IMG/VR virus record: IMGVR_UViG_3300038321_000208
Span: 1 to 36,575 of that record
Reading direction: 5' to 3' (one strand)
Length of the DNA: 36,575 nucleotides
Origin: a virus
Lineage: Duplodnaviria; Caudoviricetes
Shown here: positions 973-20,545 of the stretch, in pieces
How positions within the stretch are numbered: the first letter of the stretch is position 1
Layout: every line of letters starts with the position of its first letter
Position numbers and translations under genes: made by a program
Notes under the pieces: model-generated
Databases searched by the model: none
Told to the model about the DNA's origin: nothing
The model's input: the letters and a program-made list of their open reading frames with translations, nothing else

Positions 973-1407
973 TTATACCTTCCTCTGAACGGGAGGCGTC
1001 TGGCCGTGCGGCAAATTGAGGTAGTCGAGCAGGGCTGTTTCCAAAATACGTGAATAGTTCACTCCCTTTTGCTCGGCAGCTTCTTTGAGCCATGCCGGCA
1101 AGGTGATATTTGTCTTTACTCGCCTATTGTCCATTTCGTCCCGCACCATATCCGGGTACACGGTGACAGGCGAAACAAAATAACCGGATGCTGTATCAGG
1201 ATCGACCGTTGGCACTTTCGACGGCGCCGGAATCGGATCTCCATCCTGCTCCATACCATAAATGTGCAGACCCAGTGCGTCAGCGGCTTCCCGCTGAGCT
1301 TCTTCAAAGGTTTTTCCATAGCTGATGCACCCGGGGAGATCCGGAAAATAGACACCGTATCCGTCCTTGCTGGGCTCAAAAACAGCCAGATATGATAATT
1401 TACGCAT
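973..1407 (-). CDS. hicB: HicB family antitoxin
   Basis: YLAVFEP..GYGVYFPDLPGCISYGKTFEEA N-domain and C-terminal RHH-like KTNITLPAWL..A...GVNYS. The second ATG (1407) has the better RBS spacing. Confidence 0.92.
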   Translation of the reverse strand: MRKLSYLAVFEPSKDGYGVYFPDLPGCISYGKTFEEAQREAADALGLHIYGMEQDGDPIPAPSKVPTVDPDTASGYFVSPVTVYPDMVRDEMDNRRVKTNITLPAWLKEAAEQKGVNYSRILETALLDYLNLPHGQTPPVQRKV

Positions 1408-1440
1408 CCACATAACCTCCTTCTCGCCGCAGGCGGGGCT

Positions 1441-4905: not shown

Positions 4906-5894
4906 ACGACCGTCCCCACGCATACCCGAGTGCTGCCGCAGTAGAATCCAGCGGATCCTCTGCCGACCGCTTTGAATGTGGTGAGCAGAAACCTCCCGAA
5001 CTTTTCGGCCGGTTTGGTCTGCCTAAACACTGAACCTGTGCCGCAAACAACAGGAAAATCTGTCTTGAAGCAGTACGTTTCTCCGAGTTTTTTCACAAAT
5101 GGTCTTGTTGTATCGCTGTAAGGCCGCTTGACGGCAGCAATGCAGACGCGCTTGCCGTTGGCGTAAAAGCCAACGCCGGACGTCAGCGTGGCTGCTTTGA
5201 ACTTTGTGTAGTGGTACCCATCTTGGCCAATGACGGCGGAGAGCCGTGTGAATGCGCTGCTCGCGCAGGTGATAGGCGAGCCGGTTTTGAACTGATATTC
5301 CTGGCCAGGGCAAACCGTCAGTGAGCCGGTATCGCAGAAATTTGGATCCACTTTCGGCGCACCGATCATCGTACCGTAAGACGGCAAGGCGAACGGTCTC
5401 CCTGCTATGCAGTTGGAAACAGCCGTCTTAAATGCCGCCCACGCGTCCGGATGGTCGACATAATATTTTGGGCAGTGCTTGCCCGTCACGTCGTAATGGC
5501 GGATGATGCCTCCGCTCAGCGGATTCAGGCCATACCGCTTGCATATCTGCGCGGCGAGCTTCACCAGCGAAGTTTCCGCCGCCTGCGAGAACTTCCCGGT
5601 AGTGTCGGCGTGACACGTTTCGATCGAGATCGTGTCCTTGTTCCGCTGGTTCGTGCAGTATGACCACTCGGACTCGGGGATCAGTTGAATCACTTCTCCC
5701 TGCATCCCTACGGCATAGTGACACGATGCATATCGTTTGGCCCGGATGCAGGTGCCGTTGAAATAATCCCGCATGTTCTGGGCGCTGGCGCCCGGATCAC
5801 CGGCATAATGTACGGCGACGGCGTTGACCTTCCGCATCCTGATCTGCGGCCGAGTGTACTCGTTAGGAGTAATGAATTCCTGCTTAATGTTCAT
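4902..5894 (-). CDS. Endolysin, N-acetylmuramoyl-L-alanine amidase (Amidase_2) with two C-terminal repeats
   Basis: VAVHY, ASCHY.VG..GEVIQLIP, ISIETC and IIRHYDVTGK.CP motifs. Confidence 0.92.
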   Translation of the reverse strand: MNIKQEFITPNEYTRPQIRMRKVNAVAVHYAGDPGASAQNMRDYFNGTCIRAKRYASCHYAVGMQGEVIQLIPESEWSYCTNQRNKDTISIETCHADTTGKFSQAAETSLVKLAAQICKRYGLNPLSGGIIRHYDVTGKHCPKYYVDHPDAWAAFKTAVSNCIAGRPFALPSYGTMIGAPKVDPNFCDTGSLTVCPGQEYQFKTGSPITCASSAFTRLSAVIGQDGYHYTKFKAATLTSGVGFYANGKRVCIAAVKRPYSDTTRPFVKKLGETYCFKTDFPVVCGTGSVFRQTKPAEKFGRFLLTTFKAVGRGSAGFYCGSTRVCVGTVV

Positions 5895-5909
5895 AAGAAT
5901 TCTCCTTTC

Positions 5910-6224
5910 TTAATCCCCGTGGTTCCTTTCAGCATTCTGTTGCAGAAGATAGGCATTTAGCTCATCTGTGAACCCTTGGTAATAGGTGAATGCCTTCTCC
6001 ATTTTTCCGTCCGGTTCCCCACCCTTTTGAGCGATCGCGGTTGCCTCCGAAAGATGCCCTATCGCCTGCAACCCGCGAAAAATCAGGATGCTTTCCTTTT
6101 TGCGTGATTCTTCGCGGGTGTCTTCTTTCCGGTCCATTTTATTGATCTTCTTCAGCACTAACCCGCCAATGACTGTTCCCATCCCTAAGGCGCTGATTAC
6201 GATTGTTATGATCTGTGCTACCAT
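5910..6224 (-). CDS. Phage membrane protein upstream of endolysin (holin-like)
   Basis: Single N-terminal TM helix followed by a charged helical region; typical position. Confidence 0.65.
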   Translation of the reverse strand: MVAQIITIVISALGMGTVIGGLVLKKINKMDRKEDTREESRKKESILIFRGLQAIGHLSEATAIAQKGGEPDGKMEKAFTYYQGFTDELNAYLLQQNAERNHGD

Positions 6225-6332: not shown

Positions 6333-6404
6333 AAATAAAAAAAGCCCTCGTGTGAGGACCTTGCAATTATATAAAAAAGAGAGCGGCTATTCGTCGCTCT
6401 CTTT
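6333..6404 (-). terminator. Two tandem intrinsic terminators after the DGR RT
   Basis: AAAGAGAGCGAC-GAATA-GCCGCTCTCTTTTTT (6373-6404, overlapping the RT stop) and GGTCCTC-ACAC-GAGGGCTTTTTTT (~6337-6360). Confidence 0.7.
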
Positions 6405-7733
6405 GATAGCACTATTCCGTTGTAGGGAAAACCAGCCTTCCGTCCATTCCGTATCGGTGTATTCTCCGAAGATTTTTTTCCGAAGCGAATAGCTGTTGCA
6501 GTGTGAAAGCAGAGCGTCATAGGCGCTGAGAGTCTTCTTTGCCCGCTCCAATGAAATTTCACCATCTCGATAATCTTCCATCAAGGCCCGCAACCTTCTC
6601 CGCATTCTAAGGGCTGTGCTTTTCCGAAGTTTCAAATGGTTAGACCACAATCGGAAGCCGCAGAACTCGATTCCAAGGCTGATGGGACGAATGCAGACCT
6701 TGTCGTTCAGATCCAGCTGCAACCGGTCGTTGATGAAATTCTCCAGCATATCCTGCCAATCTTTCAGCTGCTGTTTGCTGTCCGAAAGGATTATAACATC
6801 ATCGTTATACCGGACATAATATTTGATACGGAGCTCTCTCTTTGCGTACTGATCGAGCGGATTAAGGTTCAGATTTGCAAGCATTTGAGATGATAGGGAT
6901 CCCACCGGGAGCCCCCGGTCCGGGATGCGCTCAGCCCTCGGAACTTCTTCCGGACGCTTTCCTGACGGCAGCCCGAAGTTCTGATTATTATCGCAAACAG
7001 TCGCTCTCATCCACGCCTGAACCTGCTTATCGCTGACCTTTCGATTAAACTCTCGAAGCACAACAGCATGTGAAATACGATAGAAATATTTCGATATGTC
7101 TAATTTTAGATAATACCATTTATGGCCTTCAGGAGCATCTTGGAATTCGATTTTTGATTTCCTCGATATGGCCTGCAGGTCATTGATTGATATTTTTTCG
7201 GAAGTTTGGTTTATGGAAATCTCACGGAAACCCTCGTGCGTCCAAACAGCCAGCTTCCCATTATTCCGAACGTTCTGCCAACCGGCTTCAGAAAGAACTC
7301 GTAAAACCGTACTGACCGGATAACAAGGTACATTGTTCTGCCAATCGACCAGCCGAAGCCAGTAATACAGTCGTTCTACCGCCGCAATCTGTCCTCTATC
7401 CTTAATGCTCGCAAAAGTATCTTTTATGTATCCACGGACAAATCGAGGATTCAGCACCCGGTAAAATGCCCACTGTATTACTCGGTCTTCAAATGGCTGC
7501 TTCATAATAAGGCGGCATTTGGGTTCATAAATATAAGATTCATGATACGGGCCTGGGTGGAAATCTCCAGCGAGTAGCCGCTTCTGAATGTGGCATAAAT
7601 TATCAATGAGATGGGCCGAAAACTTGAGAACTTCAGAACGATACCGTTTATCTCGCCGGGCTTTCAAATACGCCCGGTGGATGTTTTCAAACCTCGTGAT
7701 CTCAGGAAATACATTTTTTATCGTTTTTGGCAT
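6387..7733 (-). CDS. DGR reverse transcriptase with HicA-like insertion
   Basis: YEPK.RLI, F.DRVIQ, LKLDISKYF, GLPVGSLSSQ (DGR-type SQ), YVRYNDD and GIEFCGF motifs; no group II intron En domain. Confidence 0.95.
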   Translation of the reverse strand: MPKTIKNVFPEITRFENIHRAYLKARRDKRYRSEVLKFSAHLIDNLCHIQKRLLAGDFHPGPYHESYIYEPKCRLIMKQPFEDRVIQWAFYRVLNPRFVRGYIKDTFASIKDRGQIAAVERLYYWLRLVDWQNNVPCYPVSTVLRVLSEAGWQNVRNNGKLAVWTHEGFREISINQTSEKISINDLQAISRKSKIEFQDAPEGHKWYYLKLDISKYFYRISHAVVLREFNRKVSDKQVQAWMRATVCDNNQNFGLPSGKRPEEVPRAERIPDRGLPVGSLSSQMLANLNLNPLDQYAKRELRIKYYVRYNDDVIILSDSKQQLKDWQDMLENFINDRLQLDLNDKVCIRPISLGIEFCGFRLWSNHLKLRKSTALRMRRRLRALMEDYRDGEISLERAKKTLSAYDALLSHCNSYSLRKKIFGEYTDTEWTEGWFSLQRNSAIKESDE

Positions 7734-7887
7734 CTAAGACCTCAGGAAAACGCAAAAGGCGGCTTTCACTTTCGCTACTTGCAGCCTTCGCAAAATTCAT
7801 TTTTTTGCCAAACTGGCACGGAAACGAATTCCTTTATCCTCAGACTCCGTGCGGCGTCCATGGACGCGCGCCCCTGGTATGAGGTAG

Positions 7888-7999
7888 AGCGGCGCGGAAA
7901 CCCACGCTCCCCGAAGTATACGAGCGCGGATTATTGATGTTGAGGGCGAACACGCCAGCGGAAGCACCATTGGAATAATTACCACCGCGAAAAGGCAAA
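7888..7999 (-). ncRNA. DGR template repeat TR-a (RT-proximal)
   Basis: 112-bp homolog of VR (LPFRGGNYSNGASAGVFALNINNPRSYTSGSVGFRAA). The 3' half differs from VR at 5 nt, 4 of them template A. Confidence 0.92.
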
Positions 8000-8160
8000 A
8001 ATAAATTCGTTCCCATGTTTGCATCGGAGCGATTTTCGCAGATGTGCTACTCACGGCTCCTTAACGTTTCATTTTTTTACTGTAATCAGTACGGAAGCAG
8101 TTCCCTTTATCCTCGGGCTCTGTGCGCTGTCCATAAACATACGTCTCTGGCGCGAGGTAG

Positions 8161-8272
8161 AGCGGCGCGGAAACCCACATTGGTCCCGGAATTGGCACGA
8201 GGGTTATTCAGATTGAGGGCGAACACGCCAGCGGAAGCAGAATCATTCCAATCACCACCGCGAAAAGGCAAA
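8161..8272 (-). ncRNA. DGR template repeat TR-b (middle)
   Basis: 112-bp homolog of VR (LPFRGGDWNDSASAGVFALNLNNPRANSGTNVGFRAA). The 5' half differs from VR at only 2 nt, both template A. Confidence 0.92.
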
Positions 8273-8449
8273 ACATGAACTACTCCCAAATTCATCAAAT
8301 TAAGCTATGTTTTGCGAGGTTTGCATTTGCTACTACCAGCATCCATAGCTAATTCATTTTTTTGCCGAAATGTTAAGCATGGAAACAGGCTCCTTTAATC
8401 TCGTGTTCTGTTCATATATCCTTAGATATATGCCTCCGACAGGAGATAG

Positions 8450-8561
8450 AGCGGCGCGGAAACCCACATCGCTATTGGAGTACGAGCGGGTATAATTGAT
8501 ATAGAGGGCGAACACGCCAGCGGAAGCACCGTTACCGTATTCACCACCGCGAAAAGGCAAA
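8450..8561 (-). ncRNA. DGR template repeat TR-c (avd-proximal)
   Basis: 112-bp homolog (LPFRGGEYGNGASAGVFALYINYTRSYSNSDVGFRAA) with the same invariant blocks and flanking structure; no matching VR segment in the window. Confidence 0.82.
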
Positions 8562-8579
8562 ATACAGCCTGTTCCCGAA

Positions 8580-9098
8580 TTATTTTTTAGAAATTTTCTT
8601 TTGGCATGCGTAGCATAAAGATCTACCGAAGTGTGCAGTAGAATAGTCGTTGATTCTCTTTGTTATTACAGCACCGCAAACCGAGCATATATATTCTTTT
8701 CCTTCTGAATCGATTGTTCCGGACTTTTCACGCTCAGATTTTAACCACCCCCCTACCATCTGCCCGACCTCGACAATGCATTTTGAAATGTTTTCAAACT
8801 GGGGATCCTTCAGATAACCCAAATCGTTTGCCCACTGAATATCCATCTTGAACGCCCCGATCTCGGTATCAAGTTGACGAAGCGTGTCCTTTTTAGTGTA
8901 TTTTTTGTTCGCAACAAAGATCAGCTTTTTTATTGAATTGAATTCCTGCATCAGCGTTTGGACGATTACAAAGCGCTGCTCCTTATTCATTTTCCCGAGC
9001 ACCGGCCATAAGTACAGACCGAGGTCATACACCTTTTGCTGGATAAAAAGTTGCTCGTAGGCTTTTCCAAAGTGTCTATGATCGTTCTTTTCAGACAT
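8580..9098 (-). CDS. avd: DGR accessory variability determinant with C-terminal zinc ribbon
   Basis: L.I.QK.YD...Y....L, K.QRF, ANKK..KK.TL..LD.E and EVG.MVGGW.K four-helix-bundle motifs; located directly upstream of the TRs; CxxC-x20-CxxC tail. Confidence 0.9.
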   Translation of the reverse strand: MSEKNDHRHFGKAYEQLFIQQKVYDLGLYLWPVLGKMNKEQRFVIVQTLMQEFNSIKKLIFVANKKYTKKDTLRQLDTEIGAFKMDIQWANDLGYLKDPQFENISKCIVEVGQMVGGWLKSEREKSGTIDSEGKEYICSVCGAVITKRINDYSTAHFGRSLCYACQKKISKK

Positions 9099-9121
9099 AG
9101 AAGCTCCATATTATCAAAAAC

Positions 9122-9199
9122 TTTACCTATTCTGTAATAGTATAATGAGTTTCTGATATAAAAATCTCGCTTTTGGAATGAAATTACAATCTTCGTAAT
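9122..9199 (-). promoter_or_regulatory. avd-TR-RT operon promoter/operator
   Basis: -10 TATACT (9139-9144); ATTAC-N7-GTAAT (9183-9199); TTAC-N7-GTAA (9123-9137); 15-bp block identical to 918-932. Confidence 0.65.
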
Positions 9200-9216
9200 T
9201 TTTCGACAGGAAAATC

Positions 9217-9251
9217 AAAATGGGGATAGCCCTCAAACCTATCCCCATTTT
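9217..9251. terminator. Terminator-like hairpin separating tail genes from avd
   Basis: AAAATGGGGATAG-N9-CTATCCCCATTTT perfect 13-bp inverted repeat. Confidence 0.7.
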
Positions 9252-9264
9252 CCAATTTTTCGCG

Positions 9265-9308
9265 ACCCGCTTACGCGGGTGTAGATAAAAGTGGCGCTAC
9301 CGCGCCAC
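9265..9308 (-). promoter_or_regulatory. DGR target-recognition hairpins downstream of VR
   Basis: Minus strand: GTGGCGC-GGTA-GCGCCAC (9291-9308, GRNA loop) and ACCCGC-GTAA-GCGGGT (9265-9280). Confidence 0.75.
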
Positions 9309-9333: not shown

Positions 9334-10710
9334 TCACGATACGCAAAAAGCGGCGCGGAAACCCACGCTCCCCGAAGTCGACGAGCGCGGATTATCGATG
9401 CCGAGGGCGAACACGCCAGCGGAAGCAGAATCACGCCAATCACCACCGCGAAAAGGCAAACACTCAGTATTTGCACTTGTACCTTGGTACTGATAATCAT
9501 TCCCAAATTCGGCCAATCCGGAACTATCGCAATCCCCCATAACAGCGTGCTTCGCAAGTTTAGGATCCGTGTTGAGTTCCGTAACATCTTCGCTACTGCT
9601 TGACCAATTTGTCGGGAATTGTAAGCCCGTATCCGCTTCATCAACATATAAATAGCCGGTCCCTGCACTCCCTACTTTCAACTTCAAGCCGGCAGTCCAC
9701 TCCCAGACGTTACCATTGAGGTCATAGACACCATTGACCCTTCCCGTATGGCTCGTAAGATTCTGACCTGTCTTCCACCCTGATTTAATACCAGTGCCGG
9801 TCAATGCACGGCTGGAAACCGTAGGATCTGCCGTAAACGTGATTCCAGCGTCGTCAGTATCTTTCAAGCTGCTATTGTTTTCATAAGGTCCCCAACGGTT
9901 ACTTCCAAAACGGTCCGGGCCAAGGAGCATCGAATAAATGCCCAGTGCAACCCATTCTTCATCGCGTATAAGGCGTACTCCGATGTCTTTTCCATTCGTC
10001 GCATCGCTGGTCGCACAGGCGATCAAAGCATTGTCATATGTAATGGTCGTCCACGGGATTACACCGCTCTTTGAGACAGCGACCGTACTGCTACCGCCTG
10101 TGGAGGCCGTCGCATCGGCTTTGGATGCTTGAAATTTGAAAGCATAAAAGGGATGGAAAAGAACGACATTGTAATCCACACCCTCCGTCCCGGTTGGCCT
10201 ATGCCGAACAAAAAAGCCTTTTGGCCTACTGGCGTAACCGCAGGCAGATGGATTAATAACCTGAAATGCCCTAAAACCGGGCTGATAGACCCATGCGTTT
10301 GATCCCAGGTTAAAATCGTGAACTTCCAGACTGGAATCACAAAACTCTACTGCTGTTCCATCAGCATAGCCGCCAGAAGGCGCTTCCGGGTAAATGGTAA
10401 TCGGAACTTTGTTCCCTGCCGCCGTTCCACCGGTCGCGACAAGATGATAATTTCCGCCGATTTTTATCATGGCGGTTTTGTTGATATTTCCCGTCAGTGT
10501 GCCGCTTGCCGAATATACATTAACGCTCTGACTTCCCTCGGCGACAGTTTCGACCATAAGCCCCGTTGACGGATTGAGAGTATTTGATACATCTTTCCAG
10601 TGTTCCCGCTGCCATAAGGCGGAAAACACTTCCACGTCGTCTGAATTTAATGAAAAGTTTTCTGCCGGAGGTTCCGGTTGCACCTTTTTCTGCGCACCAA
10701 AGATAATCAT
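9334..10710 (-). CDS. DGR target: tail/receptor-binding protein with C-terminal FGE-type C-type lectin (Mtd-like) domain
   Basis: PW.TI...A..AC, LI...EW, GVYDLNGNVWEW and RGG.W......G........R.....GFR motifs; last gene of the tail module. Confidence 0.9.
   Translation of the reverse strand: MIIFGAQKKVQPEPPAENFSLNSDDVEVFSALWQREHWKDVSNTLNPSTGLMVETVAEGSQSVNVYSASGTLTGNINKTAMIKIGGNYHLVATGGTAAGNKVPITIYPEAPSGGYADGTAVEFCDSSLEVHDFNLGSNAWVYQPGFRAFQVINPSACGYASRPKGFFVRHRPTGTEGVDYNVVLFHPFYAFKFQASKADATASTGGSSTVAVSKSGVIPWTTITYDNALIACATSDATNGKDIGVRLIRDEEWVALGIYSMLLGPDRFGSNRWGPYENNSSLKDTDDAGITFTADPTVSSRALTGTGIKSGWKTGQNLTSHTGRVNGVYDLNGNVWEWTAGLKLKVGSAGTGYLYVDEADTGLQFPTNWSSSSEDVTELNTDPKLAKHAVMGDCDSSGLAEFGNDYQYQGTSANTECLPFRGGDWRDSASAGVFALGIDNPRSSTSGSVGFRAAFCVS
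9349..9460 (-). repeat. DGR variable repeat (VR)
   Basis: LPFRGGDWRDSASAGVFALGIDNPRSSTSGSVGFRAA at the extreme 3' end of the target; colinear with all three TRs. Confidence 0.95.
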
Positions 10711-15848: not shown

Positions 15849-16826
15849 TCATGGGACTATCAGCTTCTCTCCCGGATAGACATATTTGCCGTTCTGAGAG
15901 CTGCTTTGGCCGTGTTTCTTCGCCGCTGCCTCGATTGTCGATTTATTTGCGCTATATAACGACGTCCATTTGCTCCCGTCGCGGTACATTTTTACGGCGA
16001 TGCTCCACAGGGTGTCGGATGTCGTAATGGTATACGTTTTTTTCGCTGACACAGCGGCCGCCTGGCTTTTTGCTCCGAAGCCGTGAATATCAATCAGGCA
16101 CAGAAAAACCGGCTTTGCGCTGCCGTTGATATACACGCCCGTGCATGTCCCTAAGCCGCCTTTCGCGTTGCAGCTATAATACCAGCTGCTCCCGTTCCGC
16201 TTTGTGAGGGAGATATCCACCACGCCGCCTGTGCCGGCGACGACGTTCGGCCGGCCGGCCGAACAGTAGACAAGCGCCGTATATTTCCCGCCAGGAGCGA
16301 TTTTCACAGTCGTATGAGTGTCACAGGTAAAGCTGGTTCCGTTTGCAACCAGATCCTTGGGTATCGTGCCGGCAGACGTGAGATACAGGACGCCAATCGT
16401 AGGATTTAGCGCCTCCTTGAACTCAATGCTGTAGCTGATATCGCCAAACGCGCCGGAATTGGCAGGACGGAATGAAGAAATATAGACATCGTAATTAATG
16501 GCGGTTTCTGTGACGTTAATCTGAAGCCGCTGGTGGTTTGCTCTCCATTTGATAAACAGGGCGCGGAGGGTTTCGGGATCCTGCCACTCCCGCATGAGTG
16601 CAGACGGATAATTTTTCCTGGCGGCTCCGTAAAACACCGAATCCCATGATATGGAGATTAGGTCGGTTCCACCCGGCAAAATCATTTCGCCTTGTCCCAT
16701 GACATCGAAGGACAGAAATCCCGCGCTCGTGTCCATTGAGATTTTCGCGGGAAGTGTCGGTAAGCGGATCCGGCTCCCGCTTGCGGTCGCCGGATCCCCG
16801 CTCATTTCAGTCAAATAGATGTCCAT
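15849..16826 (-). CDS. XkdP-like tail protein with C-terminal LysM
   Basis: RLP.LP.KI N-domain, GDI.YSIEFKE, LysM TYTI...DTLWSIA...Y..GSKW..LY.AN...YPGEKL. Confidence 0.87.
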   Translation of the reverse strand: MDIYLTEMSGDPATASGSRIRLPTLPAKISMDTSAGFLSFDVMGQGEMILPGGTDLISISWDSVFYGAARKNYPSALMREWQDPETLRALFIKWRANHQRLQINVTETAINYDVYISSFRPANSGAFGDISYSIEFKEALNPTIGVLYLTSAGTIPKDLVANGTSFTCDTHTTVKIAPGGKYTALVYCSAGRPNVVAGTGGVVDISLTKRNGSSWYYSCNAKGGLGTCTGVYINGSAKPVFLCLIDIHGFGAKSQAAAVSAKKTYTITTSDTLWSIAVKMYRDGSKWTSLYSANKSTIEAAAKKHGQSSSQNGKYVYPGEKLIVP

Positions 16827-19800
16827 TATGCGCTTTCCTCCAGCGGCGTGTTGTCGTGATCCTTTTCAATCCCCTCGGCAATCGCATCGCTGACAATGTT
16901 CGCTATTTCATCCTTGTGGTCTTTAATTTGCTGTACCACATCCCCATTTCCTCCTTCTACAACAATTTTGATGGACTGAATGATGACCTGGGGCTTACCG
17001 CCGCCAGCGCCTCCGGCCGCAGCGGGCGCCGGACGCGGATGCGGATTCGGAGTATCAGCCTCCGAAGGACTCGACGGGAATTGAATGACATCCCCACCGA
17101 AACCGCCGTTGGCTTTGGCGTCAATGCTCTGGCCGAGCGCGCTCCCGGTCTGCCGCCAGAGCTGCACACCACGATCATGCCTCCGGCTGCTCAGTGGGAT
17201 CACCATTTCAGGCGTTCCCTCTTCACCGAGAAGCGTCACTGTCGGCCGGGATATAAGGCCGCCGGCCGCCTTGTGCGCGCTTTGAGTGGATCCGCTTGTC
17301 GCAGCGCTGTAACCTGCGCTGAAATTGTGAGTAATCGTTCCCCATATGTCTTTGAAGAAGTTCGGCAGGGTATTAGTGAAGAATCCCTTGATGCTATTCC
17401 AAATGGTGGTTCCGAGCTCCGGGAGGGTATTTGTAAAAAACGTATTTACCGAACCCCATAGGCTGGAGAAGAATCCGGGGATCGTTTTCGTAAAGAACGG
17501 AGTGATGTTGTTATTCCAGACGTTCGACGCCCACGTCGGAAGTGTGGAGGTGAAGAACGTCGAAATCCCATTCCAGAGGGTTCCGAAGAAATTCGGGATG
17601 CTCTGCGTAAAGAACGGGACGATGTGGCCATTCCAGACGTTTGACACCCACGTCGGAAGTGTGGAGGTGAAGAACGTCGAAATCCCATTCCAGAGGGTTC
17701 CGAAGAAATTCGGGATGCTCTGCGTAAAGAACGGGACGATGTGGCCATTCCAGACGTTTGACACCCACGTTGGAAGCGTGGAGGTAAAGAACGTCGAGAT
17801 CCCGTTCCAGAGGGTTCCGAAGAAATTCGGGATGCTTTGCGTAAAGAACGGGACGATGTGGCCGTTCCAAACATTTGACGCCCACGTCGGAAGTGTGGAG
17901 GTAAAGAACGTCGAGATCCCATTCCACAGGTTCCCAAAAAAGTTTGGTAGATCTTGGGTGAAGAATATTTGCGCTTTTCCGGTTGCATAACCTATGGCAA
18001 AGGGCAACTGCTGTGTAAAAAAGTTTGGAAGTGTACTCGTGAAGAACGTACCGATGCCGGTCCCCACCGTTTGCACGGCCTGTGGGATCATCTGCGTAAA
18101 GAACGTGCCGAGGCCGGCTCCCATCGTCTGAAAGGCACCGGGAATCTTATTTGTGAAGACATCCCCGATGGCCTTCCCCGCGCCGGAAACCGTTGGAGCG
18201 ACTTTTGTGCTTACAAAAGTCCCGATCCCGGTGCCAATCTTTCCTGCGGTGTCCGGAACCGTCTTTGCGAAAAAGCCTCCGACCGCTTTGCCGGCGTTGT
18301 TCAGGGCGCCGCCCTTATTCGTGGATTTTGCGAGTGCCGAGCCGGCTTTGTTGCCGCCAATCAGGGCACTTGCACCGCCTACACCGGCGCCGACCAGCGC
18401 GCCCACAGCTGTACCAACCCCAGGCACGACAGATCCTATCAACGCGCCGGCGCCGATCATTCCAAGCTTTGTCCCACCCTGGAACTGCTTTTCTCGCTTG
18501 GCTTGCCCGGCCGGCATCTTACTCGCATTATAGAGATCCTTGCCGGCGCTGGCCACGCCGACTCCGGCTGTAATCGCGCCGGCAGTTGCGGCGGAACCGG
18601 CCAACGCCGCACCGCCTGCGGTCGCGGCACCGGAACCGAGCTTTGTCCCAATTTTTCCAAACAGGCTTCCTGCCTTAGACGCGCCGAATTTCTGCAACAG
18701 ACTGCCGCCTGCGGCCGCCTCGCCGGATTCCAGCAGCGGTTTTTCTCCGGAAGGAAGCGCCGGTGCCCCGCTGGACCGTGAGCCGGTCGCCGGGACGCTG
18801 GGCACGCCGACAAAAGATTTTCCGACCAGGTTCACCACGTTCGCCAGCACGTTCATAGTGCCGATGGTAGAAGCGTTCGGCATGTTCATCCCGGAACCGC
18901 CGCTTCCGCTGTTGCTTTTACCCTTTCCGAAAATGCCGCTCAGGGCACCCGTGATCGTTTTGCTCGTGGTGATTGCATTGGAAAGGCCCTTCACGAAACT
19001 TGTGCCGAATTTAAGCCCGATCGCGACCATAAGCACCTTGTGCGTTTCGGCGAAATTCTGAAACGCGCTTACGATCTTTTTGCCGTCGAAGCCCTTCAAA
19101 AACCCAGAGCAGAAGCTTGAGCCAAGATTGGCTCCCTGCTGCCGCGCATCCCCATCGCTGAATCCGAGGAGCGCCGTGATGCCGCCTGTTATCCCGGAAC
19201 CGAGGCTTTCCCCGATCCCGGACAATTTCTTTGCGATTTTTCTTTTTCCTGTGCTGTCCCACCAATCGGCAAATGGTTTTGAAATAACCTCGTCCCACGC
19301 AATTTTGATTTTCCCGCCGATGGATGCGTTTTTGAAGCGGTCCGAGTTGAAAACCTTGGTCATGCGGTCCTCGATGTGGCCCAGCACATCAAATACTTTC
19401 GTGCTTAACGCAGCGCCGAAATCTTCGAGGCTCGACCCGGCCTTGTTCAGCGTCGGACCAATATCCGCGAGGAATTTATTGAACCGCGAAAGGCCCTTAA
19501 TCGCACCGGTCTGGAGGCCGTGCCCCCATTTTGAGATAATTCCGACATCGAATGTATCTTTGATCTGCGATAGAAGCCCTGATGCAGTACGGTTAGCCGT
19601 CTTGTCCATCATGCCATTGAATTCACCCATGCCTTTTACGATGGCGTCAATGGCTTTATCCGCTGGAATTAATCCCTTTTCGGCCATCTTCTGGATCTCC
19701 GGAACCGTCTTCCCCATCGACTGGGCAACATATTTCCAGGCGTTGATGCTATTGTCGGTCAGCTGCAGCATCTCGGAAGAGGACAGTTTGCCTTTCATCC

Positions 19801-20545
19801 TCATCTGGCCTAAGGCGACGATCACGCGCTGGATGCCCTCTGAGCCGCCGCCCAAGGCCGCCTCGGCGTTACCGATGGCGTTCAGCGTAGGGATGATCTG
19901 CTTCGCGCTGAAGCCGTAAGCAAGCATTTGCTGGCTGTCCTGTACCAGATCCTGTGTGCCGAAAGGCGTTTCAATCGCAAATTTTTGAATATCCGATATC
20001 ATCTGCTGAGCCTTCGACGCTGAACCAAGCATCGTCTCAAAGCCAACGGACGCAGTGGAGAGGTTATCTGCCAATTGGAGCGGGACCCCTATGAGTTCTT
20101 TCACCGCCGCGCCGGTCGCTATGCCGGCGATCAACGTTTTCACAGACAGAATATGGTCCACGATTGACCGAAGCGGAGCTGTGACCTTGTCGGCAACCTT
20201 CAGCGTGGCCGTGAAAACAGAGCTGGCGAACGATTTGCAGCTCCCGTGAATCAGGTCGACCGTCTTGGTCGCCTTGTCCGTCGCGCTCAATGTCGCGGTG
20301 AACGCGCGCCGGGCAAAGGATTGGCCGCTGCTGGTCGCATCACGAATCTTGGAGGTTGCCTTATCGTTGACATCAATGAGCGGCCGGGCTCTGGTAGAAC
20401 CGAATTTGGCGGTATCCTTCTGTGCCCGCTCGACCGTCGCATCGAATTTTGAAACATTTTGGGTTTCCTGCTGAACCCCTTTGGACATCTCGTCCTTTAA
20501 TTTCGCCACAACGTCGATTACGACTTCGCTATTCCCACCATCCAC
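16826..20545 (-). CDS. Tail tape measure protein
   Basis: 1239 aa; FETMLGSA..A.......FA..TPF tape-measure domain; Trp/Phe repeats; C-terminal A.GG....PT...GE.G.E.VIPL. Confidence 0.95.
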   Translation of the reverse strand: MDGGNSEVVIDVVAKLKDEMSKGVQQETQNVSKFDATVERAQKDTAKFGSTRARPLIDVNDKATSKIRDATSSGQSFARRAFTATLSATDKATKTVDLIHGSCKSFASSVFTATLKVADKVTAPLRSIVDHILSVKTLIAGIATGAAVKELIGVPLQLADNLSTASVGFETMLGSASKAQQMISDIQKFAIETPFGTQDLVQDSQQMLAYGFSAKQIIPTLNAIGNAEAALGGGSEGIQRVIVALGQMRMKGKLSSSEMLQLTDNSINAWKYVAQSMGKTVPEIQKMAEKGLIPADKAIDAIVKGMGEFNGMMDKTANRTASGLLSQIKDTFDVGIISKWGHGLQTGAIKGLSRFNKFLADIGPTLNKAGSSLEDFGAALSTKVFDVLGHIEDRMTKVFNSDRFKNASIGGKIKIAWDEVISKPFADWWDSTGKRKIAKKLSGIGESLGSGITGGITALLGFSDGDARQQGANLGSSFCSGFLKGFDGKKIVSAFQNFAETHKVLMVAIGLKFGTSFVKGLSNAITTSKTITGALSGIFGKGKSNSGSGGSGMNMPNASTIGTMNVLANVVNLVGKSFVGVPSVPATGSRSSGAPALPSGEKPLLESGEAAAGGSLLQKFGASKAGSLFGKIGTKLGSGAATAGGAALAGSAATAGAITAGVGVASAGKDLYNASKMPAGQAKREKQFQGGTKLGMIGAGALIGSVVPGVGTAVGALVGAGVGGASALIGGNKAGSALAKSTNKGGALNNAGKAVGGFFAKTVPDTAGKIGTGIGTFVSTKVAPTVSGAGKAIGDVFTNKIPGAFQTMGAGLGTFFTQMIPQAVQTVGTGIGTFFTSTLPNFFTQQLPFAIGYATGKAQIFFTQDLPNFFGNLWNGISTFFTSTLPTWASNVWNGHIVPFFTQSIPNFFGTLWNGISTFFTSTLPTWVSNVWNGHIVPFFTQSIPNFFGTLWNGISTFFTSTLPTWVSNVWNGHIVPFFTQSIPNFFGTLWNGISTFFTSTLPTWASNVWNNNITPFFTKTIPGFFSSLWGSVNTFFTNTLPELGTTIWNSIKGFFTNTLPNFFKDIWGTITHNFSAGYSAATSGSTQSAHKAAGGLISRPTVTLLGEEGTPEMVIPLSSRRHDRGVQLWRQTGSALGQSIDAKANGGFGGDVIQFPSSPSEADTPNPHPRPAPAAAGGAGGGKPQVIIQSIKIVVEGGNGDVVQQIKDHKDEIANIVSDAIAEGIEKDHDNTPLEESA
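17498..17965 (-). repeat. 117-bp (39 aa) tandem repeat, 4 copies, inside tape measure gene
   Basis: GTRAAGAA anchor recurs at 17490, 17607, 17724, 17841 and 17958. Confidence 0.9.

Follow-up and report, generated by a model that had tools for sequence, protein, structure and literature searches.

Three tandem template modules, each with its own closing stem, and a single mosaic variable repeat in a phage DGR

DGRs are usually described as having one invariant template, which is mutated at adenines only. The window analysed here, a 36,575-nucleotide stretch of viral DNA, carries three templates in tandem (TR-a, TR-b and TR-c), and the questions are whether each belongs to a complete RNA module, why the stems that close the modules differ, and which of the templates act as donors. 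The best explanation, held with good confidence, is that this is a phage DGR with three tandem templates, each with its own stem and a full spacer and predicted to fold as a complete RNA unit of the BPP-1 type, and that a shared reverse transcriptase (RT) and Avd likely copy any of them into the single variable repeat (VR) of a likely tail receptor-binding gene.

The virus record is 36.6 kb long, about 60% complete, and carries terminase, major head, tail sheath and baseplate genes. On the minus strand, 3' of the tail module, the order is target gene, avd, three complete template-plus-spacer modules and RT. The genes and the elements on the target side are:

9334..10710, minus strand: target gene of 458 aa that closes the tail module; its C-terminal lectin/FGE-like tip contains the VR
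9349..9459, minus strand: VR, with a 5' block of TR-b type, a 3' block of TR-a type and the crossover in the constant middle block
9291..9308, minus strand: GC-rich inverted repeat (7 bp) whose loop is of GRNA type, located behind the target gene
8580..9098, minus strand: avd gene, 172 aa (Pfam bAvd, E=2e-16; PHROG 3206)
6387..7733, minus strand: reverse transcriptase gene, 448 aa (Pfam RVT_1; PHROG 1423)

The target gene matches a tail protein (PHROG 5302, E=1.2e-5) and PDB 5vf4_A (E=8.3e-12), the Thermus DGR variable protein, and gives a weak match to FGE-sulfatase that lies below the cut-off (E=0.002); it is likely a tail receptor-binding gene. The RT is of DGR type, with clade membership assigned by context. 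By its sequence, the VR sits at the 3' end of a predicted lectin-fold gene with a putative hairpin downstream. A GRNA hairpin consensus behind the VR has been described (PMC3240598), and the inverted repeat at 9291..9308 is likely the target-recognition hairpin; no repeat of this type was seen behind the TRs. A search of the contig for further VRs found only the one at 9349..9459, and no second target was found in the 36.6-kb record, itself some 60% complete. The gene order, the A-to-N pattern and the GC-rich constant blocks are those of the canonical target-avd-TR-RT phage DGR with a CLec-type target, as are the GRNA hairpin behind the VR and a 5' boundary governed by homology (PMC5758913, PMC3240598). 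Flow in canonical DGRs is one-to-one or one-to-many, whereas here it is many-to-one; the TRs here are also poor in AAC codons, unlike those of the canonical phage DGR. In place of a single invariant TR there are three, with cores that turn over between relatives. The template units, in the order in which the minus strand is read, are:

8566..8576, minus strand: 5' strand of the closing (stop) duplex of unit c, 4 nt past the avd stop codon
8447..8560, minus strand: TR-c
8305..8449, minus strand: spacer RNA c (Rfam RT-14, 65.3 bits), with the 3' stop strand at 8381-8391
8277..8287, minus strand: 5' strand of the closing duplex of unit b
8158..8271, minus strand: TR-b
8021..8162, minus strand: spacer RNA b (RT-14, 48.6 bits), with the 3' stop strand at 8093-8103
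8004..8014, minus strand: 5' strand of the closing duplex of unit a
7885..7998, minus strand: TR-a
7750..7889, minus strand: spacer RNA a (RT-14, 57.9 bits), with the 3' stop strand at 7820-7830

A sequence-only reading of this DNA had proposed that each template is closed by an 11-bp stem of its own, and the six 11-mers were indeed found at these minus-strand positions, pairing 11/11 in each unit. The G-U at pair 3 noticed in that reading is present in all three units, and in unit b pair 6 is also a G-U, which it left unmentioned. The cognate duplexes have energies of -17.6, -15.2 and -12.3 kcal/mol, compared with -2.7 to -7.0 for the six cross-pairs, and an equally good 11-mer occurred in 0/300 (c), 0/300 (b) and 5/300 (a) Markov-resampled spacers. 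The TRs themselves are mutually 77-80% identical. The further helices reported after each TR were recovered in all three units, as were the motifs TAAAGG, A-run plus TGAA, and AGTAGC, the A-run being A7 every time. Each unit has the same order, in which the TR end is paired with a strand ending TAAA and is followed by GG, the stop strand, a hairpin, A7 and a distal stem-loop (in spacer RNA c, the short hairpin, A7 run and distal stem-loop come after the stop strand at 8381-8391).

When each unit was folded singly, the cognate stem formed with pair probabilities of 0.93-1.00. In the equilibrium fold of the whole 856-nt array, cognate stem c had a probability of 0.44, stem b 0.98 and stem a 0.06, and the a 5' strand paired with the c 3' strand at 0.20; stem a is lost in this fold because unit a finds competing partners. 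With the transcript ended just past stem a, the three probabilities were 0.97, 1.00 and 0.94. The unit a stem is not robust in a protein-free folding model, and the three modules were not robustly obtained from equilibrium folding of the whole transcript. The proposal of three complete RNA modules with covarying closing stems is supported by the pairing, by covariation among homologues (below) and by the single-unit folds.

The closing stem is already known, corresponding to the cPRT Stop duplex of the BPP-1 DGR. In the solved BPP-1 complex, TR and spacer form a template:primer duplex with a priming A, and two nucleotides further on an 11-bp duplex is formed with the upstream strand; the cPRT Stop comprises this 11-bp duplex together with a short stem-loop and two adenosines in A-minor contact with G-C pairs, and the RNA also has stem-loops that bind Avd and RT (bioRxiv 10.1101/2023.10.23.563531). 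The same source predicts a cPRT Stop in 207 of 278 Avd-containing DGRs, including some from Bacillota. The window units resemble BPP-1 in the 11-bp duplex between spacer and a strand upstream of the TR, beside a template:primer duplex, in a short stem-loop and adenosines that follow the duplex, in the Avd- and RT-binding stem-loops (here by analogy), and in the spacing of two nucleotides between priming A and stop strand. The flank-spacer duplex of about 11-13 bp adjoining the predicted priming site, the short stem-loop followed by adenosines, and the distal G-C pairs that mark a cPRT Stop were all found. The differences are that BPP-1 has one module rather than three with differing stems, that its upstream strand lies within avd codons whereas here only the first such strand follows avd, just outside the gene, and that its first templated base is G, compared with a predicted C here.

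The spacers also belong to a described RNA family, since all three score above the gathering cut-off of Rfam RF02921 RT-14 (65.3, 57.9 and 48.6 bits against 48.1). The RF02921 model differs from the units described here in being limited to the 3' flank, with no partner for the stop strand. Weinberg et al. 2017 (PMC5737381) speculate that some RT motifs act in DGRs, and the portions of that paper available describe neither tandem copies of RT-14 nor a DGR role for it.

The BPP-1 structure suggests how such a unit would work, and the priming site, protein contacts and stop role are all taken from it. The 3' end of the TR would pair with the spacer strand ending TAAA to form the template:primer duplex, which includes the CCTCA/TGAGG helix of the earlier reading, and the last A of TAAA would prime cDNA synthesis in cis; BPP-1 geometry places the predicted priming A at 8394 in unit c, 8106 in unit b and 7833 in unit a. 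The middle hairpin would bind Avd and the distal stem-loop RT, while the 11-bp stem, short hairpin and A-run would together act as the cPRT Stop, ending the cDNA at the 5' edge of that template, with the invariant G-C, G-C and near-invariant G-U end of the stem as the A-minor receptor. The cDNA would then integrate from the 3' end of the VR, often stopping in the constant middle block, and such stops in successive rounds from different templates would generate two-block mosaics. The stems would differ mainly because the slots have existed for long and compensatory changes can accumulate freely in pairs 4-11. Both the requirement of the stem for cDNA synthesis and its role in termination are putative. 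Disruption and restoration of the stem, which the sequence-only reading had offered as a refuting experiment, is an unsafe test, because compensatory restoration of the BPP-1 stop duplex failed to restore cDNA synthesis (bioRxiv 10.1101/2023.10.23.563531). Processing into unit-length RNAs may be unnecessary if the analogy holds, since BPP-1 priming has been proposed to occur via an internal 2'-OH (bioRxiv 10.1101/2023.10.23.563531).

Evidence that the stems are maintained came from a set of 163 homologous loci (here numbered L001 onward), made up in part of the 80 best among 500 genome hits and the 80 best among 565 viral hits, which contained 187 template units with a spacer anchor. The stem was paired at 11/11 positions in 146 of these units, at 10 in 30 and at 9 in 2; the fraction with 10-11 pairs, 176/187, is inflated by the choice of the 5' register, among GG[GA] starts, by best pairing. 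RT starts are off at many loci, but were unused in stem extraction and served as a loose upper bound for sorting TRs. The 9 units with no more than 8 pairs were left out, and the rest gave 82 distinct stems, in which APC-corrected mutual information was 0.36-0.66 for pairs 4-11 with their cognates and did not exceed 0.04 off the diagonal, so that the covariation previously claimed from three units extends to the homologues. Among 41 disjoint nearest-neighbour stem pairs, 54 of the 59 two-sided changes kept a standard pair; co-change was significant at pairs 4, 5, 7, 10 and 11 (p<=3e-4), weak at pairs 6 and 8, and not significant at pair 9. Pair 1 is G-C in 81/82 stems and pair 2 in 82/82, with the G side fixed by the anchor, and pair 3 is G-U in 76/82. 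The first template:primer pair is U-A in 79/79 distinct contexts, with the A side set by the AAAG anchor; an A-run follows the stem in 76/82 distinct stems, preceded by a hairpin in 69/76. Covarying stems across homologues bear out the earlier suggestion that all three units are under selection. The single-template relatives have the same type of stem, and because ordinary single-template DGRs contribute most of the distinct stems (51 of the 82), the closing stem is a general feature of the clade and not specific to arrays.

Arrays of 2 to 5 units were found in 30 of the 163 fetched loci, or 26 when repeats of one contig are left out. An exact-pattern scan of viral contigs returned 1 locus, and a search of 50,697 GenBank phages returned no array match.

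A second architecture was seen in L006, L007, L008 and L088-L092 (about 5280-5990), three of which are Holdemanella or Eubacterium genomes. Here 2-4 templates lie about 140-150 nt apart, with near-identical 5' stem strands and one spacer at the end. In six of these short-unit loci (L006-L008 and L090-L092) the lone 3' strand pairs with all of the 5' strands, at -11.2 to -13.6 kcal/mol, and the VRs of short-unit arrays contain sequence from spacer-less templates, which suggests template choice by alternative RNA pairing. Mixed or truncated modules, with no spacer or with a stop strand lacking the distal stem-loop, occur in L025 (5129-5835), L012 (5522-5635), L019 (5202-5315) and L087 (5503-5616). 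In two single-template relatives a second VR-like copy lies several kb downstream of the RT (L014, 11003-11115; L085, 12097-12210).

Why, then, do the stems of one array differ? The sequence-only reading had supposed that unit-specific stems prevent cross-pairing within one transcript. Active selection for mutual incompatibility, letting every module of a transcript fold and stop by itself, may have operated, although the balance leans somewhat against it. Neighbouring units of the window lose 10.3 and 11.0 kcal/mol on cross-pairing, which places them at the 94th and 97th percentiles of single-TR pairs matched on distal-spacer identity, and incompatibility is above the median in 6/9 array lineages. 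Furthermore, when pairs were matched on the Avd-hairpin region (>=80% identity), the means of 8 array lineages exceeded 22 disjoint single-TR pairs (p=6e-5), compatibility between adjacent units was lower than under permuted orders (p=0.025 in 6 lineages), and L160 has stems in an A-B-A arrangement that differ at 10/16 variable positions beside spacers that are 87-98% identical. Against this, incompatibility is below the median in the remaining 3/9 lineages (L012, L019, L022), units 2/3 of L035 and units 1/3 of L160 cross-pair as well as they pair with their cognates, and back-pairing comes within 2 kcal/mol of cognate pairing in 5/19 adjacent pairs. Between unrelated single-TR stems the mean difference is already 6.4 kcal/mol, and the same excess would be expected if a shared Avd and RT constrain the hairpins, or from spacer conversion; the distal spacer is less similar than the hairpin in most pairs. 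Moreover, the short-unit arrays seem to rely on their templates cross-pairing to a single shared 3' strand. A general requirement for orthogonality is therefore rejected, given the below-median lineages, the interchangeable stems and the near-cognate back-pairing. What stands of the earlier supposition is the unusual incompatibility of the window neighbours, which is probably of help to this lineage without being a requirement.

The preferred reading of a shared RT and Avd that copy any of three modules into one VR is best examined at the VR itself. Compared with single TRs, the VR has 16 (TR-c), 16 (TR-b) or 7 (TR-a) non-A mismatches; read as a mosaic of TR-b and then TR-a, with the crossover in the constant block, it has one (position 9379). 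The block derived from TR-b differs from it at two adenines only, and the TR-a block has four A-to-N changes, so that the adenine pattern of a TR-VR pair appears only in the two-template mosaic and no single TR fits. Identity between VR and TR stops at the predicted template:primer junction. The orthologous locus L001, with an RT 81% identical, has the reverse mosaic with 0 non-A mismatches. Altogether 17 array loci were tested, with 7 clear two-segment mosaics, 7 single-TR fits, 1 marginal case and 2 unexplained; the VRs of L035 and L071 fit every one of their TRs poorly. Transfer that starts at the 3' side and has its 5' boundary set by homology (PMC5758913) would explain crossovers in the constant block.

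Contigs from other studies (numbered with X; 8 run slots representing 7 distinct runs) were also compared with the window, as single contigs of low depth (2.7-11.3). The 3' block of the VR is TR-b in X4 (12/12 nt) and in X8 (joint 9348->8161, 78 nt), and TR-c in X7 (12/12 nt), and in all three the block joins the VR's own flank. No TR-b or TR-c block was found at the VR in the other 5/8 runs compared; X1 matches the window there and may be the very sample that yielded it, and X6 and X13 are uninformative at the 3' block. A joint to TR-a in X17 was left uncounted, since the 30 nt shared there leave room for an assembly artefact, and records of X7 with 13 and 19 differing letters were set aside as related phage. 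X8 also has a separate depth-2 contig covering the VR 5' block, with 9 unassigned differences from the window. Because TR-b or TR-c sequence occurs in the VR of other contigs, all three templates are apparently used as donors. The VR differs between populations, and RT-dependent mutagenic retrohoming is the putative cause; the block exchange could instead be DNA-level gene conversion.

A related question is whether the templates themselves change. Stems of the window and L001 are 100% identical in slot a, 95% in slot b and 68% in slot c, where 7/22 nt differ and pairing is still 11/11. The proximal spacer of slot a is 91% identical while its core is only 72% identical, less than the 77-80% shared by the three TRs of the window, and TR cores turn over between the two phages while stems stay in their slots. 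One X8 contig has a TR-a-type core within slot c, with 5 differences, of which the 3 displayed all fall at TR-a adenines. Since slots keep their scaffolds while cores change, as in slot c of X8, the templates are likely rewritten. Gene conversion is as plausible a route as retrohoming, because BPP-1 homing needs a hairpin downstream of the VR (PMC3240598) and the TRs are without one of that type. Array TRs are also poor in A (mean 18.5 in 52 cores against 24.3 in 79 single TRs, kinship being ignored). Orthologous scaffolds with non-orthologous cores, the slot c core of X8 and this depletion of A give some support to a speculative and rather doubtful idea, that the array is a rewritable template library in which long-lived, mutually incompatible scaffolds serve as addressable slots whose cores are rewritten from mutagenised cDNA or from VR alleles that have been successful. 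If it were true, the phage would store past binding-loop solutions, recombine them blockwise and mutate them again.

Deletion hybrids, with the 5' strand of one unit on the spacer of the next, were seen in X13 (joint 8157->8447) and L103 (996-1109), and these leave a mismatched stem.

It is unlikely that only the RT-proximal unit is reverse-transcribed, with the others as silent cassettes of DNA brought to the VR through ordinary recombination. The A-poor TRs do resemble stored alleles, the crossovers are located in constant blocks, and repeat-mediated deletion hybrids occur (X13, L103), all of which would suit such cassettes. However, the upstream units retain complete covarying scaffolds, with c-c' stems that have changed yet remain fully paired, all three spacers pass the RT-14 cut-off, and the VR block from TR-b deviates from it only at two adenines. 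A neutral by-product of tandem duplication, in which several templates bring no advantage, is very improbable, for although unit number varies from 2 to 5, with recent identical duplicates (L035) and loss by deletion, the same three slots are found in the same order in a phage with an 81% identical RT, the TR cores are 20-25% divergent yet in frame, and arrays occur in distant lineages and in two architectures.

The stem and spacer being already known, the unusual part of the locus, on the reading of three usable modules, is the arrangement of three complete ones. Tandem template modules with one target are not described in the accessible portions of PMC4891356, PMC6642488, PMC5758913, PMC8144416 and PMC11661182, or of bioRxiv 2024.11.15.621889, 2026.07.21.739853 and 2026.09.22.753630. 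The literature search found no tandem complete modules feeding one VR in main texts, and Handa Table S3 or Wu Supplementary Data 3 may list such loci. Comparable published cases were tallied or excluded, or involve more than one target, and the passages on them mention no mosaic VRs. With several live templates for one target, scaffolds can be switched and blocks shuffled, which opens up sequences that a single template cannot yield through A-to-N mutagenesis; besides mutating its binding loops, the phage likely exchanges and combines entire designs of them. The locus also offers three natural variants of the stem, all of which have to function with a single RT and Avd, and thereby a clean test of cPRT Stop requirements where designed compensatory mutants of BPP-1 failed. 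Multiplexed DGR engineering could take its models from the two natural layouts, a spacer per template and one spacer shared by many.

The named RT relatives are mostly from Bacillota, which suggests a Bacillota host. Near-identical DNA occurs in fermentation, landfill and bioreactor metagenomes, with 8 runs containing at least half of the record's words. Scans for promoters (5 against 2.9+-1.9 expected) and terminators (3 against 2.1+-1.7) were at chance level. The gap between target gene and avd (window 9080-9243) is swapped for 131 other letters in X6, X7 and X13. Avd has a Zn-ribbon-like C-terminal extension (window 8580-8740, minus strand). The RT has an insertion of about 70 aa (window 7125-7352, minus strand), retained by close relatives down to 60% identity, which has a weak HicA-like match below the cut-off (E=0.008) and could be an extra RNA-binding domain; a HicB-like antitoxin gene lies near the end of the record (window 973-1413, minus strand). 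Finally, four 117-nt in-frame repeats (window 17393-17977) lie inside a 1239-aa gene (16826-20545) that is likely the tape-measure gene.
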